Shown here in pieces: positions 23,145 to 34,388 of a DNA stretch of 64,000 nt (its first letter is position 1; every line of letters begins with the position of its first letter). The notes below the pieces were generated by a model. That model was not told where the DNA came from. It saw only the letters and a list, made by a program, of their open reading frames with translations, and did not search any database. The DNA is from Escherichia phage JoYop. The translations under genes were made by a program, and so were the position numbers. The stretch lies in the sequence record OR769032.1. One strand, given 5' to 3'.

Positions 23145-23152
23145 TATAAATA
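23145..23152 (+). promoter_or_regulatory. late promoter TATAAATA for gene 34
   Basis: TATAAATACTTATT 35 nt upstream of gene 34 ATG. Confidence 0.7.
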
Positions 23153-23186: not shown

Positions 23187-26100
23187 ATGGCCGAGATTAA
23201 AAGAAAGTTCAGAGCAGAAGATGGTCTGGACGCAGGTGGTGATAAAATAATCAACGTAGCTTTAGCTGATCGTACCGTAGGAACTGACGGTGTTAACGTT
23301 GATTACTTAATTCAAGAAAATACAGTTCAACAATACGATCCAACTCGTGGATATTTAAAAGATTTTGTAATCATTTATGATAACCGCTTTTGGGCTGCTA
23401 TAAATGATATTCCAAAACCAGCAGGAGCTTTTAATAGCGGACGCTGGAGAGCATTACGTACGGACGCAAACTGGATTACGGTTTCATCTGGTTCATATCA
23501 ATTAAAATCCGGTGAAGCAATTTCGGTTAACACTGCAGCTGGTAATGACATCACGTTTACTTTACCATCTTCTCCAATTGATGGTGATACTATCGTTCTC
23601 CAAGATATTGGAGGAAAACCTGGAGTTAACCAAGTTTTAATTGCAGCTTCAGTACAAAGTATTGTAAACTTTAGAGGTGAACAAGTACGTTCAGTACTAA
23701 TGACTCATCCAAAGTCACAGCTAGTTTTAATTTTTAGTAATCGTCTGTGGCAAATGTACGTTGCTGATTATAGCAGAGAAGCTGTAATTGTAACACCAGC
23801 GAATACTTATCAAGCGCAATCTAACGATTTTATCGTGCGTAGATTTACTTCCGCTGCGCCGATTAATATTAAACTTCCGAGATTTGCTAATCATGGCGAT
23901 ATTATTAATTTCGTTGATTTGGATAAATTAAATCCACTTTATCATACAATTGTTACTACATACGATGAAACTACTTCAATACAAGAAGATGGAACTCATT
24001 CTATTGAAGGCCGTACATCGATAGATGGTTTCTTGATGTTTGATGATAATGAGAAACTGTGGAGATTGTTTGATGGCGATAGCAAAGCACGTTTACGTAT
24101 TATAACAACTAATTCAAATATTCGTCCAAATGAAGAAGTTATGGTATTTGGAGCGAATAACGGAACAACCCAAACAATTGAGCTTCAGCTTCCAACTAAT
24201 ATTTCTGTTGGTGATACTGTTAAAATTTCCATGAATTACATGAGAAAAGGACAAACAGTTAAAATCAAAGCTGCCGGTGAAGATAAAATTGCTTCTTCAG
24301 TTCAATTGCTGCAATTTCCAAAACGTTCAGAATATCCACCTGAAGCTGAATGGGTTACAGTCCAAGAATTAGTTTTTAACGGTGAAACTAATTATGTTCC
24401 AGTTTTGGAGCTTGCTTACATTGAAGACTCTGATGGAAAATACTGGGTTGTACAACAAAACGTTCCTACTGTGGAAAGAGTAGATTCTTTAAATGATTCA
24501 ACTAGAGCAAGATTAGGCGTAATTGCTTTAGCTACACAAGCTCAAGCAAATGTCGATTTAGAAAATTCTCCACAAAAAGAATTAGCAATTACTCCAGAAA
24601 CATTAGCTAACCGTACTGCTACAGAAACTCGTAGAGGTATCGCAAGAATAGCAACTACTGCTCAAGTGAATCAGAACACCACATTCTCTTTTGCTGATGA
24701 TATTATCATTACTCCTAAAAAGCTGAATGAAAGAACTGCTACAGAAACTCGTAGAGGTGTTGCTGAAATTGCTACGCAACAGGAAACTAATGCAGGTACT
24801 GATGATACTACAATCATCACTCCTAAAAAGCTTCAAGCTCGTCAGGGTTCTGAATCATTATCTGGTATTGTAACCTTTGTATCTACCGCAGGAGCTACTC
24901 CAGCTTCTAGTCGTGAATTAAATGGTACAAACGTTTATAATAAAAACACTAATAATTTAGTTGTTTCGCCTAAAGCTTTGGATCAGTATAAAGCTACTCC
25001 AACGCAACAAGGTGCAGTAATTTTAGCGGTTGAAAGTGAAGTAATTGCTGGAAAAAGTCAAGAAGGATGGGCAAATGCTGTTGTAACGCCAGAAACGTTA
25101 CATAAAAAGACATCAACTGATGGAAGAATTGGTTTAATTGAAATTGCTACACAAAGTGAAGTTAATACAGGAACTGATTATACTCGTGCAGTCACTCCTA
25201 AAACTTTAAATGACCGTATAGCAACTGAAAGTTTAAGTGGTATAGCTGAAATTGCTACACAAGTTGAATTCGACGCAGGCGTCGACGATACTCGTATCTC
25301 TACACCATTAAAAATTAAAACCAGATTTAATAGTACTGATCGTACTTCTGTTGTTGCTCTATCTGGATTAGTTGAATCAGGAACTCTCTGGGACCATTAT
25401 ACCCTTAATATTCTTGAAGCAAATGAGACGCAACGTGGTACACTTCGTGTGGCTACACAAGTTGAAGCTGCTGCTGGAAAATTGGATAATGTTTTAATAA
25501 CTCCTAAAAAGCTTTTAGGTACTAAATCTACCGAATCGCAAGAAGGTGTTATTAAAGTTGCAACTCAGTCTGAAACTGTGACTGGAACATCAGCAAATAC
25601 TGCTGTATCTCCAAAAAATTTAAAATGGATTGTACAGAGTGAACCTACCTGGGCAGCTACTACTGCGGTAAGAGGTTTTGTTAAAACTTCATCTGGTTCA
25701 ATTACATTCGTTGGTAATGATACAGTTGGTTCAACACAGTCGTTAGAATTATACGAGAAAAATAGCTATGCAGTATCACCATATGAATTAAACCGTGTAC
25801 TCGCTAACTATTTGCCATTAAAAGCAAAAGCTGCTGACGCAAATTTATTAGATGGCCTAGATTCATCCCAGTTCATTCGTAGGGATATTGCACAGACGGT
25901 TAATGGTTCACTAACCTTAACCCAGCAAACGAATCTGAGTGCCCCTCTTGTATCATCTAGTACTGCTACGTTTGGCGGATCAGTTTCAGCAAACAGCACA
26001 TTAACTATTTCTAATACTGGAACTATGACGCCCCGTATCGTTTTCGAAAAAGGTCCTGCATCTGGGGCAAATCCTGCACAGTCAATGAGTATTCGTGTAT

Positions 26101-27059
26101 GGGGTAACCAATTTGGCGGCGGTAGTGATACAACACGTTCGACAGTGTTTGAAGTTGGCGATGAAACATCTCATCACTTTTATTCTCAACGTAATAAAGA
26201 CGGTAATATAGCGTTTAGTATTAATGGTACTGTAATGCCAATAAACATTAATGCTTCCGGTTTGATGAATGTGAATGGTGTTGCAACATTCGGTCGTTCA
26301 GTTACAGCCAATGGTGAATTCATTAGCAAGTCTGCAAATGCTTTCAGAGCAATTAGTGGTGATTATGGATTCTTTATTCGCAATGATGCTGCTAATACCT
26401 ATTTTATGCTCACTGCATCAGGTGATCAGACTGGCGGATTTAATGGATTACGTCCTTTGGCTATTAATAATGCATCTGGCCAAGTAACGATTGGTGAAGG
26501 CTTAATCATTGCCAAAGGTGCTACTATAAATTCAGGTGGTTTGACTGTTAACTCGAGAATTCGTTCTCAGGGTAATAAAACATCTGATTTATATACCCGT
26601 GCGCCAACATCTGATACTATAGGATTCTGGTCAATCGATATTAACGATTCAGCCACTTATAACCAGTTCCCGGGTTATTTTAAAATGGTTGAAAAAACTA
26701 ATGAAGTGACTGGACTTCCATACTTAGAACGTGGTGAAGAAGTTAAATCTCCTGGTACATTGACTCAGTTTGGTAACACACTTGATTCGCTTTACCAAGA
26801 TTGGATTACTTATCCAACGACTCCAGAAGCACGTACCACTCGCTGGACGCGTACATGGCAGAAAACCAAAAACTCTTGGTCGAGTTTTGTTCAGGTATTT
26901 GACGGAGGTAACCCTCCTCAGCCGTCTGATATCGGTGCTTTACCATCTGATAATGCTACAATGGGGAATCTTACTATTCGTGATTTCTTACGAATTGGTA
27001 ATGTTCGCATTGTTCCTGACCCAGTGAATAAAACGGTTAAATTTGAATGGGTTGAATAA
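23187..27059 (+). CDS. 34: long tail fibre proximal subunit gp34
   Basis: 1290 aa; late promoter TATAAATA 35 nt upstream; internal RxATETRRG...ATQ repeats. Confidence 0.95.
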   Translation: MAEIKRKFRAEDGLDAGGDKIINVALADRTVGTDGVNVDYLIQENTVQQYDPTRGYLKDFVIIYDNRFWAAINDIPKPAGAFNSGRWRALRTDANWITVSSGSYQLKSGEAISVNTAAGNDITFTLPSSPIDGDTIVLQDIGGKPGVNQVLIAASVQSIVNFRGEQVRSVLMTHPKSQLVLIFSNRLWQMYVADYSREAVIVTPANTYQAQSNDFIVRRFTSAAPINIKLPRFANHGDIINFVDLDKLNPLYHTIVTTYDETTSIQEDGTHSIEGRTSIDGFLMFDDNEKLWRLFDGDSKARLRIITTNSNIRPNEEVMVFGANNGTTQTIELQLPTNISVGDTVKISMNYMRKGQTVKIKAAGEDKIASSVQLLQFPKRSEYPPEAEWVTVQELVFNGETNYVPVLELAYIEDSDGKYWVVQQNVPTVERVDSLNDSTRARLGVIALATQAQANVDLENSPQKELAITPETLANRTATETRRGIARIATTAQVNQNTTFSFADDIIITPKKLNERTATETRRGVAEIATQQETNAGTDDTTIITPKKLQARQGSESLSGIVTFVSTAGATPASSRELNGTNVYNKNTNNLVVSPKALDQYKATPTQQGAVILAVESEVIAGKSQEGWANAVVTPETLHKKTSTDGRIGLIEIATQSEVNTGTDYTRAVTPKTLNDRIATESLSGIAEIATQVEFDAGVDDTRISTPLKIKTRFNSTDRTSVVALSGLVESGTLWDHYTLNILEANETQRGTLRVATQVEAAAGKLDNVLITPKKLLGTKSTESQEGVIKVATQSETVTGTSANTAVSPKNLKWIVQSEPTWAATTAVRGFVKTSSGSITFVGNDTVGSTQSLELYEKNSYAVSPYELNRVLANYLPLKAKAADANLLDGLDSSQFIRRDIAQTVNGSLTLTQQTNLSAPLVSSSTATFGGSVSANSTLTISNTGTMTPRIVFEKGPASGANPAQSMSIRVWGNQFGGGSDTTRSTVFEVGDETSHHFYSQRNKDGNIAFSINGTVMPININASGLMNVNGVATFGRSVTANGEFISKSANAFRAISGDYGFFIRNDAANTYFMLTASGDQTGGFNGLRPLAINNASGQVTIGEGLIIAKGATINSGGLTVNSRIRSQGNKTSDLYTRAPTSDTIGFWSIDINDSATYNQFPGYFKMVEKTNEVTGLPYLERGEEVKSPGTLTQFGNTLDSLYQDWITYPTTPEARTTRWTRTWQKTKNSWSSFVQVFDGGNPPQPSDIGALPSDNATMGNLTIRDFLRIGNVRIVPDPVNKTVKFEWVE

Positions 27060-27067
27060 GAGGTATT

Positions 27068-28183
27068 ATGGAAAAATTTATGGCAGAGTTTGGACAAGGA
27101 TATGTCCAAACGCCATTTTTATCGGAAAGTAATTCAGTAAGATATAAAATAAGTATAGCGGGTTCTTGTCCGCTTTCTACAGCAGGACCATATGTTAAAT
27201 TTCAGGATAATCCTGTTGGAAGCCAAACATTTAGCGCAGGACTTCATTTAAGAGTTTTTGACCCTTCCACCGGAGCATTAGTTGATAGTAAGTCATATGC
27301 TTTTTCGACTTCAAATGATACTACATCAGCTGCTTTTGTTAGTTTCATGAATTCTTTGACGAATAATAGACTTGTTGCTATATTAACTAACGGAAAAGTT
27401 AATTTTCCTCCTGAAGTAGTGTCTTGGTTAAGAGCCGCAGGAACGGCTGCTTTTCCATCTGATTCTATATTGTCAAGATTCGACGTATCATATGCTGCTT
27501 TTTATACTTCTTCTAAAAGAGTTATCGCGTTAGAGCATGTTAAACTAAGTAATAGAAAAAGCACAGATGACTATCAAACTATTTTAGATGTTGTATTTGA
27601 TAGTTTAGAAGACGTTGGAGCTACGGGATTTCCTAAAAGAACATATGAAAGTGTCGAGCAATTCATGTCAGCGGTCGGTGGAACCAATAACGAAATTGCA
27701 CGTTTTCCAACTTCATCCGCGATAAGTAAACTCTCTGATTATAATTTAGTTCCTGGTGATGTTCTTTATCTTAAAGCTCAGTTATATGCTGATGCGGATT
27801 TACTTGCGCTTGGAACCACAAATATATCCATCCGTTTTTATAATGCATCTAATGGATATATTTCTTCAACACAAGCTGAGTTCACCGGACAAGCTGGGTC
27901 TTGGGAATTAAAGGAAGATTATGTAGTTGTTCCAGAAAACGCTGTGGGATTTACGATATACGCACAAAGAACTGCACAAGCTGGTCAAGGTGGCATGAGA
28001 AATTTAAGCTTTTCTGAAGTGTCAAAAAATGGAGGTATTTCGAAACCTGCTGAATTTGGCGTCAATGGAATTCGTGTTAATTATATCTGTGAATCTGCTT
28101 CACCTCCGGATATAATGGTACTTCCTACACAAGCATCGTCTAAAACTGGTAAAGTGTTTGGGCAAGAATTTAGAGAAGTATAA
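27068..28183 (+). CDS. 35: long tail fibre hinge connector gp35
   Basis: 371 aa, position and size as T4 gp35; GAGG RBS. Confidence 0.9.
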   Translation: MEKFMAEFGQGYVQTPFLSESNSVRYKISIAGSCPLSTAGPYVKFQDNPVGSQTFSAGLHLRVFDPSTGALVDSKSYAFSTSNDTTSAAFVSFMNSLTNNRLVAILTNGKVNFPPEVVSWLRAAGTAAFPSDSILSRFDVSYAAFYTSSKRVIALEHVKLSNRKSTDDYQTILDVVFDSLEDVGATGFPKRTYESVEQFMSAVGGTNNEIARFPTSSAISKLSDYNLVPGDVLYLKAQLYADADLLALGTTNISIRFYNASNGYISSTQAEFTGQAGSWELKEDYVVVPENAVGFTIYAQRTAQAGQGGMRNLSFSEVSKNGGISKPAEFGVNGIRVNYICESASPPDIMVLPTQASSKTGKVFGQEFREV

Positions 28184-28188
28184 ATTGA

Positions 28189-28215
28189 GGGAGCCTTCGG
28201 GTTCCCTTTTTCTTT
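28189..28215 (+). terminator. intrinsic terminator downstream of gene 35
   Basis: GGGAGCC-UUCG-GGUUCCC followed by UUUUUCUUU. Confidence 0.65.
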
Positions 28216-28222
28216 ATAAATA
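28215..28222 (+). promoter_or_regulatory. late promoter TATAAATA for gene 36
   Basis: TATAAATACTATT directly after gene 35 terminator. Confidence 0.7.
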
Positions 28223-28245: not shown

Positions 28246-28911
28246 ATGGCTGATTTAAAAGTAGGTTCAACAACCGGAGGCTCTGTCATTTGGCATCAAG
28301 GAAATTTTCCATTGAATCCAGCCGGTGACGATGTACTCTATAAATCATTTAAAATATATTCAGAATACAATAAACCGCAAGCAGCTGATAACGATTTCGT
28401 TTCTAAAGCTAATGGCGGTACTTATGCATCAAAGGTAACATTTAATGCTGGTGTTCAAGTACCATATGCTATAAACAATACAAACCAAAGCGGTATTTAT
28501 CCTGGCAATGGTGATGCTGCTACTTTTGATACAGCAAATATTGATATTGTTTCATGGTACGGCATTGGTTTTAAATCATCACAAGGATCTGCAGGTAGAA
28601 CTGTTGTTGTTAACACTCGTACTGGTGATATCAGCACTAAGGGTGGTATTTATGCAATCGGACCCGTCCGTTCTAACGTTACCGCTCCAGTGGCAGCAAA
28701 TGACCTTACTAGAAAGGACTATGTTGATGGAGCAATAAATACTGTTACGGCAAATGCGAACTCTAGAGTGTTACGATCTGGTGACACTATGACGGGTAAC
28801 TTAACCGCACCAAACTTTTTCTCGCAGAATCCTGCATCTCAACCTTCACATGTTCCACGATTTGACCAAATCGTAATTAAGGATTCTGTTCAAGATTTCG
28901 GCTATTATTAA
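28246..28911 (+). CDS. 36: long tail fibre distal connector gp36
   Basis: 221 aa as in T4; own late promoter. Confidence 0.9.
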   Translation: MADLKVGSTTGGSVIWHQGNFPLNPAGDDVLYKSFKIYSEYNKPQAADNDFVSKANGGTYASKVTFNAGVQVPYAINNTNQSGIYPGNGDAATFDTANIDIVSWYGIGFKSSQGSAGRTVVVNTRTGDISTKGGIYAIGPVRSNVTAPVAANDLTRKDYVDGAINTVTANANSRVLRSGDTMTGNLTAPNFFSQNPASQPSHVPRFDQIVIKDSVQDFGYY

Positions 28912-28919
28912 GAGGACTT

Positions 28920-31900
28920 ATGGCTACTTTAAAACAAATACAATTTAAAAGAAGCAAAACCGCAGGTGCACGTCCTGCTGCTTCAGTATTAGCCGAAGGT
29001 GAATTGGCTATAAACTTAAAAGATAGAACAATTTTTACTAAAGACGATTTAGGAAATATCATTGATCTGGGTTTTGCTAAAGGCGGGCAGGTTGATGGAA
29101 ATATCACTCAAACTGGTGATTATTTACAAAATGGAACATATAATCTTAATGGAAACCAGTTTGTTTATGCAGGAAAATATATTGAATTTTTACCTAAAAC
29201 AGCTGGTAATGGCGCTTGGGCAAATCAACACCTAAATAAAGCCCCTATCTTTACAGATTTAAGTTCAGCTACTTCTACTTCAGAATACCATCCGCTAATT
29301 AAGCAGCGTTATAAAGATGGAACTTTTTCTGTTGGTACGTTAGTAAATGAAGGAAGTTTTAAAATTCAATATATCAATGAATCTGGTGATTCAAAATATT
29401 GGACTTTTAATCGAAACGGTAGTTTTATTGTAGATAATGGCAGTATTGAAGTCCGTGCAGGTAATATTTCGGCTTCAGGTAATATTAACTCGGCAACCGG
29501 ATTTGTTTCTGCACCGCGCGTCAATACAAAAAATATTAACCTGAGTTCTAAAAAATTTATACCGAATAATGACGAGGGTTATGACATTGTTTCTTTACCT
29601 ACTTGGATTTATAATCCACCAGCAGATGGTTCTGACCGTGATACAAACGGATTGAACTACATGCGTAAAATGCGGGCTTCAAATACTTCTAGCATTTTCC
29701 ATGAAATTGTCGATTGCCGAAAAGGTAAGCCACAAGAAATTTCTTGGTGGACTGGTGTTGGGCCTTCTTCTTTCCAGTGGGCGTTTGATACCTCCGGGCG
29801 TATTACTGCAGGTAAATCAATTTCTGTAGGTCTTCCTGATAATGGTTCAAATGGACGTTATCCTTTAGATTCTGCCATTTCTATTGGTATTGCAATTGGT
29901 GATAACGACACCGGTATTAAATGGGTCCGCGACGGTGTTATTGATTTCATGGCTAACGGTATTTCATCCGCTACCATTTTGAATAACGGTATTAACAGCA
30001 CTAAGAAATTGATGGTCGGTTATAGCCGCGATTCTGGTACTACTTGGGATTACCCAAATAACAACCAAGCAATGTTTACTGCGCGTACCGATGTTGATGG
30101 TAATAATAATGGCGATGGACAGACTCATATCGGTTATAGCAGCAACGCTAAGATGTATCACTATTTCCGTGGTACAGGTCGTATGTCCGTTAATATGGGC
30201 GATGGACTTCTTGTTGAGCCTGGCATTTTAGATATTAAAACCGGTTCAAATTCGTTAAATTTGCGCGCTGATGGTACCATTGCTTCTGTTCAAACATTAA
30301 AACTTAATAATGGATTATATTTTAATGGTGATGGAACTAATGCTTCTCTAGTTTTTAAAGCCGCTTCAGGTATTGATGGCACTAAGCAAATCATGTGGGA
30401 AGGCGGTACTCGACCAGGTCAGAATAAGAGTTATGTAACTGTTAAAGCATGGGGTAATTCATTTAACGCCACTGGCGATAAATCTCGTGAAACCGTATTT
30501 GAAGTCTCTGATGGACAAGGTTGGTATTTCTACACTCAACGCCTGGCTCCAACTGATTCTGGAACCATAGGTCGTGTTACAACTTACTTCAATGGTGAGC
30601 TTCGTTCTAAAGGAAACCTAATAAGCGAAGGAAGTCTTGAAGTTGATGGAACAAGCACACTAGCCGGTAATGTTACTATGTCTAACGGTTTGTTTGTTCA
30701 AGGTGGTTCTTCTATTACTGGACAAGCTAAATTTGGTGGAACGGCAGATGCATTAAGAATTTGGAATGCTGAATATGGTGCTATTTTCCGTCGTTCAGAA
30801 GCATCATTGCATATTATTCCGACCCCTAAAGATGCCGGTGAAAGCGGTGGAATAAGTAATCTCCGTCCACTTAGTATCAGCCTTAATAACGGTATGGTGC
30901 AAATGCGTCATTCTGTCACATTAGGTGATGATGGCAGAGGCGGAAATATGGTTACCGTAGACAACGATAATAAACTTGTTGTTGTTACTAGTAATAGTCG
31001 TATTTCTCCTAATTACCGTATGCAAATAGGTCAGTCAGCATATATTGATGTTGAATGCACTGACAGCGTTCGTCCAGCGGGTGCAGGTTCTTTTGCTTCC
31101 CAGAATAATGAAAACGTACGCGCACCATTCTATATGAATATTGACCGTACAGACAATAGCACTTATGTTCCAATTTTGAAGCAGAGATATGTACAAGGAA
31201 ACAGCTGTTACTCTATTGGAACCTTAATTAATGGTGGTAACTTTAGAGTTCATTATCATGAAGGTGGAGACGGAAGCTCATCAGGCGCAATTATAAAAGA
31301 TTTAGGATGGGAATTTACGCGTTCTGGCGATTTTATATCTCCTAAGCGTGTTTCTGCCGGGGGTTCAGTTTATTTAGGTACAGATGGTAACATTACTGGC
31401 GGTTCAGGAAACTTTGCTAACTTGAACACTACTTTAGACCGTAAAGTAACTACCGGCTGGATTAATTATTCTGTTGATAGCGGTTGGTATAAATTGGCAA
31501 CAGTAACTATGCCTCAAGGTGTGGCTACAGTTCAATTTAAAATTACTGGTGGTTCTGGATTTAACGTTGGTACTTTTAGACAAGCAACAATTAATGAAAT
31601 TGTATTGCGTTCAGGTAATAACAGCCCTAAAGGAATTAATGGTGTTTTATGGCAACGCGAAACAGATGCTATTAAAGATATTGCGTATATTAATACCTCA
31701 GGCGATGAGTATGATGTTTATATTAATTGTGGCACTTATTTAAATAGACTTACCTTAGAATATAGCACTTCAGAAAACGCTTCAGTAGTAGTTCATGGAT
31801 TATATGGGCCTACACAATCACCAGTAGAAGAGCTTCCTGTAGATACTGTTAAAGGTCGTGTTTTTAAACTTCTTAATAATAGCTCAGGCGTTTTTGATGC

Positions 31901-32885
31901 AGGTAGTTCTAATATTTCTACAAATGCAACTTTTGTGGCAAATACTACTATAGGATTCCGTCACAAATCTAACGGCGACGAAAGTGGCTCTGCAGCTGCT
32001 CTGTTTTATAATGATGGTACTACGTTCCATATATTATTAACAGATAAAAATACCGATACTGATAAAACTAAAGCCTCTGGTTCTTATAATAGCTTGAGAC
32101 CTTTTTCTATCAATATTGCTTCTGGTAAAGTAACTATTTCAAACTCTATGAGCGTTTCTGGGGTATCAGAGTTTTATAATGGACTTAACATCAAAAATAA
32201 TGGAAGTATTAACTTTGATAAGTCTGGCGCTAACCCGAGAAATATGAGAATATTTCATGCTGGTGATGCTTCTCGCGGTAACCGTATTGAAATTGCTGAT
32301 GAAACTAACTATATTGCTTACTTTGAAAAAACTCCAGGTGGAGCTAACCGCTTTGTAGTAAATAATGCTACTGTGGATGGTGTTAATCAAATGAATTCAT
32401 TTGGTATTAATATCAATAACGCACTTGGTGGAAATAGTATAGCATTTGGTGATAATGATACTGGAATTAAACAATCTGGTGACGGAATTCTCGATATCAT
32501 TACTAACGCCGCACGCCGAATGAGATTCCAAACAGGTGACACCTATTCTGACATGAATATAAACGCCCCAAACGTTTATATTCGTTCTGATATTCGTTTG
32601 AAATCTAATTTCAGACCTATTGAAAATGCTCTTGAAAAGGTTGAACAGCTTGATGGTTTAATCTATGATAAAGCTGACTATATAGGCGGTGAACCTGTTC
32701 AAACAGAAGCAGGTATTATAGCTCAAACGTTGCAAGACGTTTTACCTGAAGCAGTTCGTGAAGTTGAAGATATTAAGGGTAATAAAATACTCACTGTTTC
32801 TTCTCAATCCCAGATTGCTCTTCTGGTTGAAGCTGTGAAAACACTTTCTGCTCGTGTAAAAGAACTTGAATCTAAACTTATGTAA
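28920..32885 (+). CDS. 37: long tail fibre distal subunit gp37 (T2-type, with C-terminal intramolecular chaperone-like domain)
   Basis: 1321 aa; C-terminal ~110 aa begins SDIRLKSN..., resembling the S74-type auto-cleaving chaperone motif. Confidence 0.9.
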   Translation: MATLKQIQFKRSKTAGARPAASVLAEGELAINLKDRTIFTKDDLGNIIDLGFAKGGQVDGNITQTGDYLQNGTYNLNGNQFVYAGKYIEFLPKTAGNGAWANQHLNKAPIFTDLSSATSTSEYHPLIKQRYKDGTFSVGTLVNEGSFKIQYINESGDSKYWTFNRNGSFIVDNGSIEVRAGNISASGNINSATGFVSAPRVNTKNINLSSKKFIPNNDEGYDIVSLPTWIYNPPADGSDRDTNGLNYMRKMRASNTSSIFHEIVDCRKGKPQEISWWTGVGPSSFQWAFDTSGRITAGKSISVGLPDNGSNGRYPLDSAISIGIAIGDNDTGIKWVRDGVIDFMANGISSATILNNGINSTKKLMVGYSRDSGTTWDYPNNNQAMFTARTDVDGNNNGDGQTHIGYSSNAKMYHYFRGTGRMSVNMGDGLLVEPGILDIKTGSNSLNLRADGTIASVQTLKLNNGLYFNGDGTNASLVFKAASGIDGTKQIMWEGGTRPGQNKSYVTVKAWGNSFNATGDKSRETVFEVSDGQGWYFYTQRLAPTDSGTIGRVTTYFNGELRSKGNLISEGSLEVDGTSTLAGNVTMSNGLFVQGGSSITGQAKFGGTADALRIWNAEYGAIFRRSEASLHIIPTPKDAGESGGISNLRPLSISLNNGMVQMRHSVTLGDDGRGGNMVTVDNDNKLVVVTSNSRISPNYRMQIGQSAYIDVECTDSVRPAGAGSFASQNNENVRAPFYMNIDRTDNSTYVPILKQRYVQGNSCYSIGTLINGGNFRVHYHEGGDGSSSGAIIKDLGWEFTRSGDFISPKRVSAGGSVYLGTDGNITGGSGNFANLNTTLDRKVTTGWINYSVDSGWYKLATVTMPQGVATVQFKITGGSGFNVGTFRQATINEIVLRSGNNSPKGINGVLWQRETDAIKDIAYINTSGDEYDVYINCGTYLNRLTLEYSTSENASVVVHGLYGPTQSPVEELPVDTVKGRVFKLLNNSSGVFDAGSSNISTNATFVANTTIGFRHKSNGDESGSAAALFYNDGTTFHILLTDKNTDTDKTKASGSYNSLRPFSINIASGKVTISNSMSVSGVSEFYNGLNIKNNGSINFDKSGANPRNMRIFHAGDASRGNRIEIADETNYIAYFEKTPGGANRFVVNNATVDGVNQMNSFGININNALGGNSIAFGDNDTGIKQSGDGILDIITNAARRMRFQTGDTYSDMNINAPNVYIRSDIRLKSNFRPIENALEKVEQLDGLIYDKADYIGGEPVQTEAGIIAQTLQDVLPEAVREVEDIKGNKILTVSSQSQIALLVEAVKTLSARVKELESKLM

Positions 32886-32887
32886 AA

Positions 32888-32903
32888 GAGGGCTTCGGCC
32901 CTC
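32888..32903 (+). promoter_or_regulatory. UUCG hairpin between genes 37 and 38
   Basis: GAGGGC-UUCG-GCCCUC just before gene 38 RBS; no clean U tract. Confidence 0.35.
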
Positions 32904-32915
32904 TAAGGATTTTTA

Positions 32916-33701
32916 ATGGCAATTGTAGGTGTTCCTGGCTGGATTGGCGAATCTGCCGTGAATGAAACTGGACAACGTTGGATGGATGCTGCGATGAAAG
33001 CTGTTCGTGTTTCAGTTCCTGGTTGGATGAGCTCAATGGCTGGACAATCTAAAGAAGTATATTACAGCATTGGTGCTAGTAATTCTTATAATAAAGACAC
33101 GCTAATAAATTGGATAAAAGCTCAAGGAAGTACTCCTGTTGTTATTACAATTACAGGAAATATTGTTTCTCAATCTACTGGTGTTCCATGCTTAGATTTT
33201 CCTAGCTCATTAACTAATGCATACGTGACACTTAATATCAATTCAGGTGTATATGTTTGGGGCCGTGGCGGGAATGGCGGAAATAACTCTGCCGGTGGAG
33301 CAGGAGGAACTGCAATAAATAATGGAATTGGAACTAGATTGCGTATTAACAACAATGGTGTTATCGCAGGCGGTGGTGGCGGTGGCGGTGGTGGGTATTA
33401 TTCTCCTACGCCACAAATGAAATTAACCTTTGGTGGTGGTGGCGGTCGTCCGTTTGGTGCTGCTGGTGGATCTGCCAACATGCAATCAGGCGCAACTGCT
33501 GGTACTATTTCCGCGCCAGGTAAAGGGTCTGTCAACGGTGTCTATAATGGCGGAAACGGCGGTGATGCTGGTGCCGCAGGTGGTAAATGTAATATTCGTG
33601 GTCAAGGATCAGAATATAACGGCGGTGCGGCTGGTAAAGCTGTTACTGGTAATGCTCCAACTTGGACTAAAGTTGGTACAATATATGGTGCAAGAGTATA
33701 A
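32916..33701 (+). CDS. 38: receptor-recognising adhesin gp38 (T2-type)
   Basis: 261 aa; five glycine-rich motifs including a run of nine Gly, separated by variable segments. Confidence 0.88.
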   Translation: MAIVGVPGWIGESAVNETGQRWMDAAMKAVRVSVPGWMSSMAGQSKEVYYSIGASNSYNKDTLINWIKAQGSTPVVITITGNIVSQSTGVPCLDFPSSLTNAYVTLNINSGVYVWGRGGNGGNNSAGGAGGTAINNGIGTRLRINNNGVIAGGGGGGGGGYYSPTPQMKLTFGGGGGRPFGAAGGSANMQSGATAGTISAPGKGSVNGVYNGGNGGDAGAAGGKCNIRGQGSEYNGGAAGKAVTGNAPTWTKVGTIYGARV

Positions 33702-33731: not shown

Positions 33732-34388
33732 ATGGCAGCACCTAGAATATCATTTTCGCCCTCTGATATTCTATTTGGTGTTCTAGATCGCTTGTTCAAA
33801 GATAACGCTACCGGGAAAGTTCTTGCTTCCCGGGTAGCTGTCGTAATTCTTTTATTTATGATGGCGATTGTTTGGTATAGGGGAGATAGTTTCTTTGAGT
33901 ACTATAAGCAATCAAAGTATGAAACATACAGTGAAATTATTGAAAAGGAAAGAAATGCACGCTTTGAATCTGTCGCCCTGGAACAACTCCAGATAGTTCA
34001 TATATCATCTGAGGCAGACTTTAGTGCGGTGTATTCTTTCCGCCCTAAAAACTTAAACTATTTTGTTGATATTATAGCATACGAAGGAAAATTACCTTCA
34101 ACAATAAGTGAAAAATCACTTGGAGGATATCCTATTGATAAAACTATGGATGAATATACAGTTCATTTAAATGGACGTCATTATTATTCCAACTCAAAAT
34201 TTGCTTTTTTACCAACTAAAAAGCCTACTCCCGAAATAAATTACATGTACAGTTGTCCATATTTCAATTTGGATAATATCTATGCTGGAACAATAACCAT
34301 GTACTGGTATAGAAATGATCATATAAGTAATGACCGCCTTGAATCAATATGTTCTCAGGCGGCCAGAATATTAGGAAGGGCTAAATAA
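33732..34388 (+). CDS. t: holin
   Basis: 218 aa; N-terminal transmembrane segment then large periplasmic domain; matches T4 holin T. Confidence 0.93.
   Translation: MAAPRISFSPSDILFGVLDRLFKDNATGKVLASRVAVVILLFMMAIVWYRGDSFFEYYKQSKYETYSEIIEKERNARFESVALEQLQIVHISSEADFSAVYSFRPKNLNYFVDIIAYEGKLPSTISEKSLGGYPIDKTMDEYTVHLNGRHYYSNSKFAFLPTKKPTPEINYMYSCPYFNLDNIYAGTITMYWYRNDHISNDRLESICSQAARILGRAK

Follow-up and report, generated by a model that had tools for sequence, protein, structure and literature searches.

In Escherichia phage JoYop, which type of receptor-binding tip does the long tail fibre carry, and which outer-membrane protein is it likely to recognize? The locus in question was analysed within a window of 64,000 nucleotides, i.e., the whole stretch of DNA under study, from record OR769032.1. 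The list of open reading frames places gp37 at 28920-32885 (ATG start, 1321 aa) and gp38 at 32916-33701 (ATG start, 261 aa), both on the + strand, in agreement with an earlier note on this DNA. Both are exact matches to annotated proteins of JoYop, a Tequatrovirus (OR769032), namely WPJ67584.1 and WPJ67585.1, and E. coli C is given as the isolation host in the genome announcement (PMC10927641). According to reading frames and Pfam matches, genes in the window follow the order gp34-35-36-37-38-t, with gp37 and gp38 located between gp34/35/36 and the holin gene t, and the same gp37-gp38-t order was found in T2, T6, Bas36, Bas38, Bas39, Bas45, REP1, RB32, and PST. The two genes encode an ordinary receptor-binding tip for the long tail fibre, as found in T4-like coliphages, and the plan they follow is that of T2/T6 and not that of T4. 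Both proteins were already known, as was the gp37-gp38 tip design: the tip, its self-cleaving chaperone, and the adhesin made of glycine-rich motifs and hypervariable segments (HVSs) have long been established (Trojet 2011; S16 structure 6F45).

The gp38 adhesin was first considered domain by domain. Its N-terminal attachment domain (aa 1-42; 32916..33041, + strand) matches Pfam Gp38_N (PF21721; E 7.2e-18, 64.8 bits for a cut-off of 25) and would, by homology, dock on the gp37 tip. Tryptophans W9, W22, and W37 are invariant among the eight aligned adhesins, and the conserved N-terminal tryptophans of gp38 act as "prongs" in phage S16 (PMC7917993). The linker and the N-terminal part of the beta-helix domain (aa 43-115; 33042..33260, + strand), named after PMC12032242, belong to the T2/Bas45/Bas39 sequence class, with segment identities of 99% to Bas39, 93% to Bas45, 64% to T2, and 34% to T6. 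The specificity domain, supported by Pfam, the S16 chain 6f45_D, and alignments, comprises aa 116-261 and the stop codon (33261..33701, + strand). Family membership was clear: Pfam GP38 (PF05268) covers aa 47-261 (E 1e-70, 238.4 bits, cut-off 25), PHROG 2056 ("tail fiber protein; host specificity") matches with an E-value of 3.9e-104, and aa 8-259 match the S16 gp38 crystal chain 6f45_D with an E-value of 3e-49. A single-sequence AlphaFold2 model (mean pLDDT 29.8, pTM 0.24) was unusable for assessing a polyglycine-II sandwich fold like that of 6f45_D.

Glycine reaches 34% in aa 116-261, versus 10% in aa 1-115. Five glycine-rich motifs, read from the sequence at about residues 116-122, 151-160, 172-185, 212-223, and 236-243, coincide with invariant glycine columns of related adhesins and are separated by four HVSs, which is the very definition of this adhesin type (Trojet 2011; PMC12032242). 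The earlier description of a 261-aa protein with five glycine-rich motifs split by variable segments is thus confirmed by the reading frame and by the aligned glycine columns, and this pattern is not a matter of chance since the protein also matches both Pfam families, GP38 and Gp38_N. The gp38 protein of the S16 tip complex (PDB 6F45) aligns end to end with that of JoYop and has the same glycine motifs, whereas its hypervariable loops differ.

The specificity domain points to a receptor. Alignment of the variable segments of gp38, suggested in the earlier note, revealed kinship with T2-type adhesins together with HVS2-4 of the T6, Tsx-binding type; OmpA-type adhesins were represented in this comparison by Bas45 and RB32, in place of K3, Ox2, and M1. 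HVS2 (YYSPxPQMKLTF), HVS3 (GSANMQSGATAGTISAPGKGSVNGVYN), and HVS4 (KCNIRGQGSEYN) are, apart from point changes, the versions found in T6, Bas36, and Bas39, while HVS1 belongs to the Bas39/Bas45 class. Over aa 116-261, identity amounts to 96% with Bas39 (Tsx), 79-80% with T6 and Bas36 (Tsx), and 75% with Bas45 (OmpA), the nearest non-Tsx relative, and it drops to 55% with T2 and 49% with Bas38 (OmpF) among OmpF/FadL binders; over aa 111-261, it is 99% with Pu-Krd-SF4. Considering the whole protein, gp38 is 96.9% identical to that of Bas39 (FriedrichMiescher, MZ501066), 87% to that of Bas45, and 84% to that of Bas43. Bas39 is Tsx-dependent in the BASEL table, as are Bas43, Bas36, and T6. One set of four HVSs is common to nearly all Tsx-binding gp38 proteins (Trojet 2011), and closely related gp38 proteins use the same receptor (PMC12032242). 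Because the hypervariable segments of gp38 are those of the T6/Bas39 set, Tsx is predicted as the receptor; the primary receptor of JoYop is most likely this nucleoside channel. The earlier note had considered that the receptor could not be assigned from sequence, a view which we revise here, as homology points to Tsx through this HVS set.

Comparison with the closest phages clarifies how this adhesin is composed. Bas39 belongs to a 90%-identity cluster together with KFS-EC3, Sf24, and IME339, and Pu-Krd-SF4 is a similarly close relative; gp38 is 261 aa long in all of them, as in JoYop, and those of KFS-EC3 and Pu-Krd-SF4 are 97.7% identical to that of JoYop. These phages share the chimeric layout of JoYop gp38, with an N-terminal half of the T2/Bas45 class followed by HVS2-4 of the T6 class. 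The partner gp37, by contrast, differs strongly, that of JoYop being only 56% identical to its Bas39 counterpart and 68% to that of Pu-Krd-SF4. T6 gp38 resembles JoYop gp38 in its specificity domain, with the HVS2, HVS3, and HVS4 versions mentioned above, but not in its N-terminal half (46% identical), and its HVS1 is of another class. The opposite holds for T2 gp38: its 42 N-terminal residues are 95% identical to those of JoYop, but its specificity domain bears other HVSs. T2 uses FadL/OmpF (Trojet 2011), so that "T2-type" refers here to architecture and not to the receptor.

A few changes in HVS2 and HVS3 can add or shift specificity, from Tsx to OmpA or the reverse (PMC12032242; Trojet 2011), and JoYop gp38 does present such changes. 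Among the full-length members of the 90% cluster that were read, it stands apart from the 12 others at Y113, T165, P166, Q190, S191, and V209; all of these positions except Y113, i.e., five out of six, lie in HVS2 (165/166) or HVS3 (190/191/209). Pu-Krd-SF4 shares five of the six substitutions and has M at position 165, where most relatives have F and where T was found in no other compared sequence. JoYop may possess the T2-type architecture without relying on Tsx alone, its HVS2/HVS3 substitutions shifting or broadening recognition to OmpA, to another beta-barrel protein, or to both Tsx and OmpA as in PST. The variant residues indeed adjoin the PST positions 167/168/208, switching between Tsx and OmpA through minor changes is discussed in PMC12032242, and the OmpA binder Bas45 has the same gp38 N-terminal half and HVS1 class. 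We nevertheless consider this unlikely: at the three PST-specific positions, JoYop gp38 retains the residues of T6 (Q167, M168, and G208) and not those of PST, a phage that uses both Tsx and OmpA (R, I, and I); P166, Q190, and S191 are themselves T6 residues; the loop set of Bas45 is clearly different, with no YYSPxPQM segment and an HVS3 that contains an insertion; and Bas39, the nearest typed relative, depends on Tsx. The variant common to JoYop and Pu-Krd-SF4 (Y113, P166, Q190, S191, and V209, with T165 in JoYop alone) could conceivably have an altered fine specificity, either for Tsx loop alleles missed by Bas39/T6-type adhesins or for a second receptor as in PST. This is also rather improbable; if true, a natural host-range switch would be located at position 165 of HVS2.

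Mature gp37 is predicted to comprise aa 1-1222 (28920..32585, + strand) and to form the trimeric distal half-fibre, on the basis of its reading frame, of PHROG 1699 ("long tail fiber protein distal subunit"), of its identity to T2 gp37, and of cleavage by homology. The predicted mature C-terminus reads ...NAPNVYIR and is the predicted docking surface for gp38. T2 gp37 is of similar length (1341 versus 1321 aa); identity reaches 55% for aa 1-1091 and 79% for the 165 C-terminal residues, among which PNVYIRSDIRLKSNF is identical in both; together with the S74-type C-terminal chaperone, this supports the T2-type reading previously proposed for gp37. T6 gp37 shares the VYIR/SDxRLK junction and the C-terminal chaperone with JoYop gp37, but it has 994 residues and is only ~21% identical in a global alignment. 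As judged from these alignments, gp37 and gp38 are recombinational mosaics of pieces found in other T-even phages, and gp37 is composed of at least four donor-like blocks. A central segment of gp37 (aa 421-600), poorly matched in the first 12 comparison phages, was considered as a candidate for novelty and then rejected, as tblastn yielded 85% matches in several T-even gp37 proteins, making it another mosaic block.

The C-terminal intramolecular chaperone of gp37 occupies aa 1223-1321 and the stop codon (32586..32885, + strand). Peptidase_S74 (PF13884) matches aa 1223-1280 over profile positions 1-58 of 58 (E 6.5e-15, 55.6 bits, cut-off 22), and phmmer aligned aa 1165-1318 with the S16 gp37 construct 6f45_A. 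The segment does begin with SDIRLKSN and is of the S74 type, as had been noted, but it consists of 99 residues from residue 1223 and not of about 110. It opens with SDIRLK at S1223, where Ser1223 and Lys1228 form a putative catalytic pair, and studies of endosialidase and of T5 fibres have established Ser/Lys as the catalytic pair of S74-type domains. JoYop gp37 is far longer than its S16 counterpart. In S16, gp37 is reported to be cut at DLNVS^SDRRIKK, which releases a 113-aa chaperone and exposes the docking surface for gp38, and in fPS phages the cleavage site is DVYIR^SDGRLKI (PMC7917993). The VYIR/SDxRxK motif of JoYop gp37 agrees with the S16 site, although the S16 chaperone is longer and the cut falls at S^S rather than at R^S. 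The same logic, an autocleaving chaperone followed by a monomeric gp38 cap, applies in S16 (PMC7917993, PMC12032242) and is inferred for JoYop.

The V-Y-I-R-S-D-x-R-x-K motif is invariant in seven of the seven aligned gp37 proteins that have a gp38 partner, including the divergent T6 and Bas38. The fact that the Ser/Lys pair and VYIR are kept even between gp37 proteins otherwise ~20-30% identical argues for selection on function, and gp37 probably removes its folding domain by self-cleavage between R1222 and S1223. One might object that the cleavage assignment in JoYop is drawn solely from sequence, and that the S74-like segment could be a degenerate remnant, uncleaved and kept in the virion, with a tip unlike the S16/T2 model. 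This is very improbable, as the S74 match spans the full profile well above the cut-off, as neither the Ser and Lys of SDxRxK nor the VYIR before them varies despite such divergence, and as cleavage has been reported not only for S16 (PMC7917993) but also for T2 and T6 (Trojet 2011).

T4 itself offers a different plan. The positions of the gp37 and gp38 genes, the gp34-36 partners, and a UUCG hairpin between genes 37 and 38 are common to both phages, and the 60 N-terminal residues of T4 gp37 are 95% identical to those of JoYop gp37. However, T4 gp37 has no S74 domain, shows 0-1% identity across the last 240 residues of the JoYop protein, and itself binds the receptor (Trojet 2011), while T4 gp38 is an unrelated chaperone. 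The lengths quoted in the earlier note for T4 are correct, gp37 having 1026 aa and gp38 183 aa (552 nt with its stop codon), and so is its view of JoYop gp38 as a T2/T6-type adhesin instead of a T4-type chaperone, given the two Pfam families and the 6f45_D match described above. A T4-type identity of gp38 was tried and rejected, the best BLASTP E-value against T4 gp38 being 20. That gp38 would be an assembly chaperone only, absent from particles and leaving receptor binding to gp37, is suggested by several records naming close homologues "distal long tail fiber assembly catalyst" or "tail assembly protein," but it is hardly credible, as similarity to T4 gp38 is undetectable, as gp38 belongs firmly to an adhesin family with a solved gp37-gp38 tip complex, as these "assembly" labels are inherited from the T4 gene name, and as the RefSeq T4 record itself describes gp38 of the T2 subfamily as an unrelated adhesin.

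Regarding expression, a T4 late-promoter-like TATAAATA is located at 28215..28222 (+ strand), 31 nt before the start of gp36, the short distal hinge connector joining gp35 to gp37 (28246..28911, + strand; Pfam Phage_T4_gp36, E 9.5e-40). By its position, it probably marks where a late transcript of gp36-gp37-gp38(-t) begins. A second copy was found at 23145, before gp34, and none before gp37 or gp38. Across the window, the pattern shows no enrichment, with 6 occurrences for 10 expected, and what is suggestive is solely its placement ahead of gp34 and gp36. Between gp37 and gp38, a C(UUCG)G tetraloop hairpin with a 7-bp stem (32887..32904, + strand; -13.4 kcal/mol, z-score -2.1), kept in T2, T4, Bas39, and REP1, is followed by the AAGGA Shine-Dalgarno sequence of gp38 (32905-32909, + strand), ahead of its ATG at 32916. 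Sigma-70 promoter-like sites were at chance level in the window (21 for 22.3 expected), and window-wide Rfam (at the gathering threshold) and tRNA scans found nothing.

From a mechanistic point of view, gp37 would trimerize assisted by the 99 residues of its C-terminal chaperone domain; this domain would then detach by self-cleavage at the R1222-S1223 bond, with Ser1223 and Lys1228 as the catalytic pair, thereby exposing the flat ...VYIR tip. One gp38 molecule would dock there by means of its N-terminal domain, with W9, W22, and W37; its glycine-rich motifs would build a compact polyglycine core, from which the hypervariable segments would project as loops onto an outer-membrane protein, the T6/Bas39-type loop set contacting Tsx as the primary receptor. 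Taken as a whole, the combination of a self-cleaving gp37 chaperone, a gp38 cap, Tsx as primary receptor, and mosaic genes is, with good confidence, the best explanation of this locus: reading frames, domains, conserved motifs, and the closest relatives of known receptor were observed, and cleavage, capping, and Tsx binding would follow from them by homology.

The locus matters little beyond annotation. JoYop was isolated for a biocontrol biobank, and the practical value of this work lies in a testable receptor prediction. If Tsx is indeed the receptor, loss of tsx is the expected single-gene route to resistance, and the prediction speaks for cocktails in which JoYop is joined by phages with other receptors. 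With regard to T-even phages, this locus provides a clean case of modular shuffling, the N-terminal half of gp38 and its HVS2-4 having come from two different lineages.

The gp37-gp38 module of JoYop is a member of the T2/T6/S16-type fibre tip, all of whose defining features open to sequence testing were found. Both genes lie exactly where the earlier note had placed them according to the ORF listing, gp37 (distal subunit, 1321 aa) at 28920-32885 (+) and gp38 (adhesin, 261 aa) at 32916-33701 (+), and the T4 lengths cited there (gp37, 1026 aa; gp38, 183 aa) were also right. They are part of a canonical T-even late fibre block, with gp34 (ORF, 23187-27059, its C-terminal region matching T4 gp34 structures), gp35 (ORF, 27068-28183, +), gp36 (28246-28911, +, Pfam Phage_T4_gp36) and holin gene t (33732-34388, Pfam Phage_holin_T, E 5e-117). 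An exact-sequence look-up traced both proteins to deposited JoYop records, the distal subunit being WPJ67584.1 (annotated as "long tail fiber protein distal subunit") and the adhesin WPJ67585.1 ("tail fiber protein"). The DNA flanking the module is ~95% identical to BASEL Tequatroviruses, and the top DNA match of the module itself, by BLAST against a phage collection without JoYop, is REP1 (91.6% over 87%). JoYop is a Tequatrovirus (OR769032, 169,193 bp) from Abidjan wastewater, isolated on E. coli C, whose genome announcement mentions neither fibres nor receptor (PMC10927641). That paper gives nine tRNAs (PMC10927641); since no tRNA gene was found in window 1-64000, the tRNA cluster must lie outside it. 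Nor did any Rfam family reach the gathering threshold in window 1-64000. Residues 58-116 of gp35, the hinge protein, matched Pfam ILEI (interleukin-like EMT inducer, PF15711; E 3.2e-8, 34.4 bits for a curated cut-off of 27), a surprising annotation for the hinge of a phage fibre.

In terms of expression, the T4 late-promoter-like motif TATAAATA occurs on the + strand of the fibre block only before gp34 (23145-23152, 42 nt 5' of the ATG) and gp36 (28215-28222, 31 nt 5' of the ATG), and is absent before gp37 and gp38. Because TATAAATA is not enriched in the window (6 found vs 10 expected), it is solely motif position that suggests one late transcript for gp36-37-38, perhaps including t. Downstream of the gp37 stop codon and upstream of the Shine-Dalgarno of gp38 lies a C(UUCG)G hairpin with a 7-bp stem (32887-32904, +, -13.4 kcal/mol). 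This element is conserved across T2, T4, Bas39 and REP1, with a GGGGCTTTGCCCC variant in T6. Another stable C(UUCG)G tetraloop hairpin (28187-28208, +) occupies the gp35/gp36 intergenic spacer and has a T-run, then TATAAATA, on its downstream side. Both are probably mRNA-stabilising or processing elements of the fibre operon.

The distal subunit falls into PHROG 1699 ("long tail fiber protein distal subunit"). Its identity to T2 gp37 is 55% across residues 1-1091 and 79% in the C-terminal 165 residues. The segment beginning SDIRLKSN, described earlier as ~110 aa, is indeed present and S74-type, but counts 99 aa from residue 1223. Pfam Peptidase_S74 ("chaperone of endosialidase") matched residues 1223-1280 over its entire 58-position profile (E 6.5e-15; 55.6 bits, cut-off 22), and from established knowledge of this family we take Ser1223 and Lys1228 to be the putative catalytic pair. 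The string V-Y-I-R-S-D-x-R-x-K was unchanged in 7/7 aligned gp37s, all encoded upstream of a gp38 adhesin and including those of T6 and Bas38, overall ~20-30% identical to JoYop gp37. In the S16 homologue, self-cleavage was reported at DLNVS^SDRRIKK, freeing a 113-residue intramolecular chaperone and uncovering the gp38 docking surface, and Yersinia fPS phages have DVYIR^SDGRLKI (PMC7917993). Cleavage of gp37 has been reported for T2 and T6 as well (Trojet 2011). By homology with these reported sites, and given the invariant junction, gp37 is predicted to be cut between R1222 and S1223, which would leave residues 1-1222 as the mature protein.

Whole gp37 is a singleton at 90% clustering (top full-length match 81.6%). 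Sliding identity against twelve other gp37s showed it to be pieced together from four or more donor-like blocks, with breaks near residues 420, 600, 780 and 840; every block has relatives among other T-even phages (85-100%). Residues 61-420 follow REP1 (93-100%), with slur07, Pu-Krd-SF4 and dhaeg also close over much of the block; residues 601-780 follow Bas45 and KFS-EC3 (81-100%), and residues 841-1321 REP1 and slur07 (91-100%). Residues 421-600 have no close relative among the twelve (<=80% per 60-aa block), and targeted tblastn found 85% matches in other T-even gp37s. Such mosaicism is normal for T-even gp37 and does not amount to a new architecture. Residues 485-668 and 985-1080 resemble residues 948-1109 of the same phage's gp34, in its C-terminal trimerisation region (~30% identity; Pfam Gp34_trimer), and are building blocks common to the proximal and distal half-fibres.

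The earlier description of gp38 as a glycine-rich adhesin with five motifs and variable segments, distinct from T4 gp38, was borne out by Pfam Gp38_N (aa 1-42, E 7e-18) and GP38 (aa 47-261, E 1e-70), and by phmmer against the PDB, where residues 8-259 matched the S16 receptor-recognition protein 6f45_D (E 3e-49); the GFP-gp38 fusion 9v85_A was also matched. A T4-type gp38 was rejected, similarity to T4 gp38 being absent (E = 20). The N-terminal tryptophans W9, W22 and W37 are invariant in the 8 adhesins aligned. Glycine makes up 34% of residues 116-261 vs 10% of residues 1-115, in blocks that coincide with invariant alignment columns while the stretches between them vary, in line with the known design of five glycine-rich motifs (GRMs) and four hypervariable segments (HVSs) (Trojet 2011; PMC12032242). 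Single-sequence AlphaFold2 gave a pLDDT of 29.8, too low to use.

Although the receptor had been considered unassignable from sequence, the alignment of variable segments with T2 and T6 adhesins then proposed proved feasible and points to Tsx. Identities to JoYop gp38, split into residues 1-115 and 116-261, were 98% and 96% for Bas39 (Tsx), 46% and 79% for T6 (Tsx), 46% and 80% for Bas36 (Tsx), 95% and 75% for Bas45 (OmpA), 76% and 55% for T2 (FadL/OmpF), and 48% and 49% for Bas38 (OmpF); residues 111-261 are 99% identical to Pu-Krd-SF4 and 54% to RB32 (OmpA). Receptors of Bas36, Bas38, Bas39, Bas43 and Bas45 are those listed in the BASEL supplementary table; for T2 and T6, the BASEL text was used together with Trojet 2011. 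The label "T2-type" is apt as far as architecture goes; the specificity domain itself is of the T6 type. In these alignments gp38 is a chimera whose junction lies around GRM1/HVS1, and the same changeover appears in a sliding DNA comparison. Nearly all Tsx-binding gp38s have one common set of four HVSs, and PST gained OmpA use via changes including 167R, 168I and 208I (Trojet 2011), positions at which JoYop carries the T6 residues Q167, M168 and G208. Given this common set, these residues and the Tsx dependence of the nearest typed relatives, Tsx is likely to be the primary receptor.

Specificity might nevertheless, though less probably, be shifted or broadened. JoYop gp38 departs from each of the 12 other full-length members read of its 90% cluster (68 members, including an experimentally typed one) at six positions (Y113, T165, P166, Q190, S191, V209), five of which fall within HVS2/HVS3, known sites of host-range change. 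P166, Q190 and S191 are T6 residues, and Pu-Krd-SF4 has 5/6 of the differing residues; T165 was found in no other compared sequence (F elsewhere, M in Pu-Krd-SF4).

The module noticed earlier is real and was correctly read, and it is already known; its genes are deposited and annotated, its adhesin cluster has a typed member and its biology is textbook; the sole new item is a sequence-based receptor prediction, Tsx, for one phage, JoYop.
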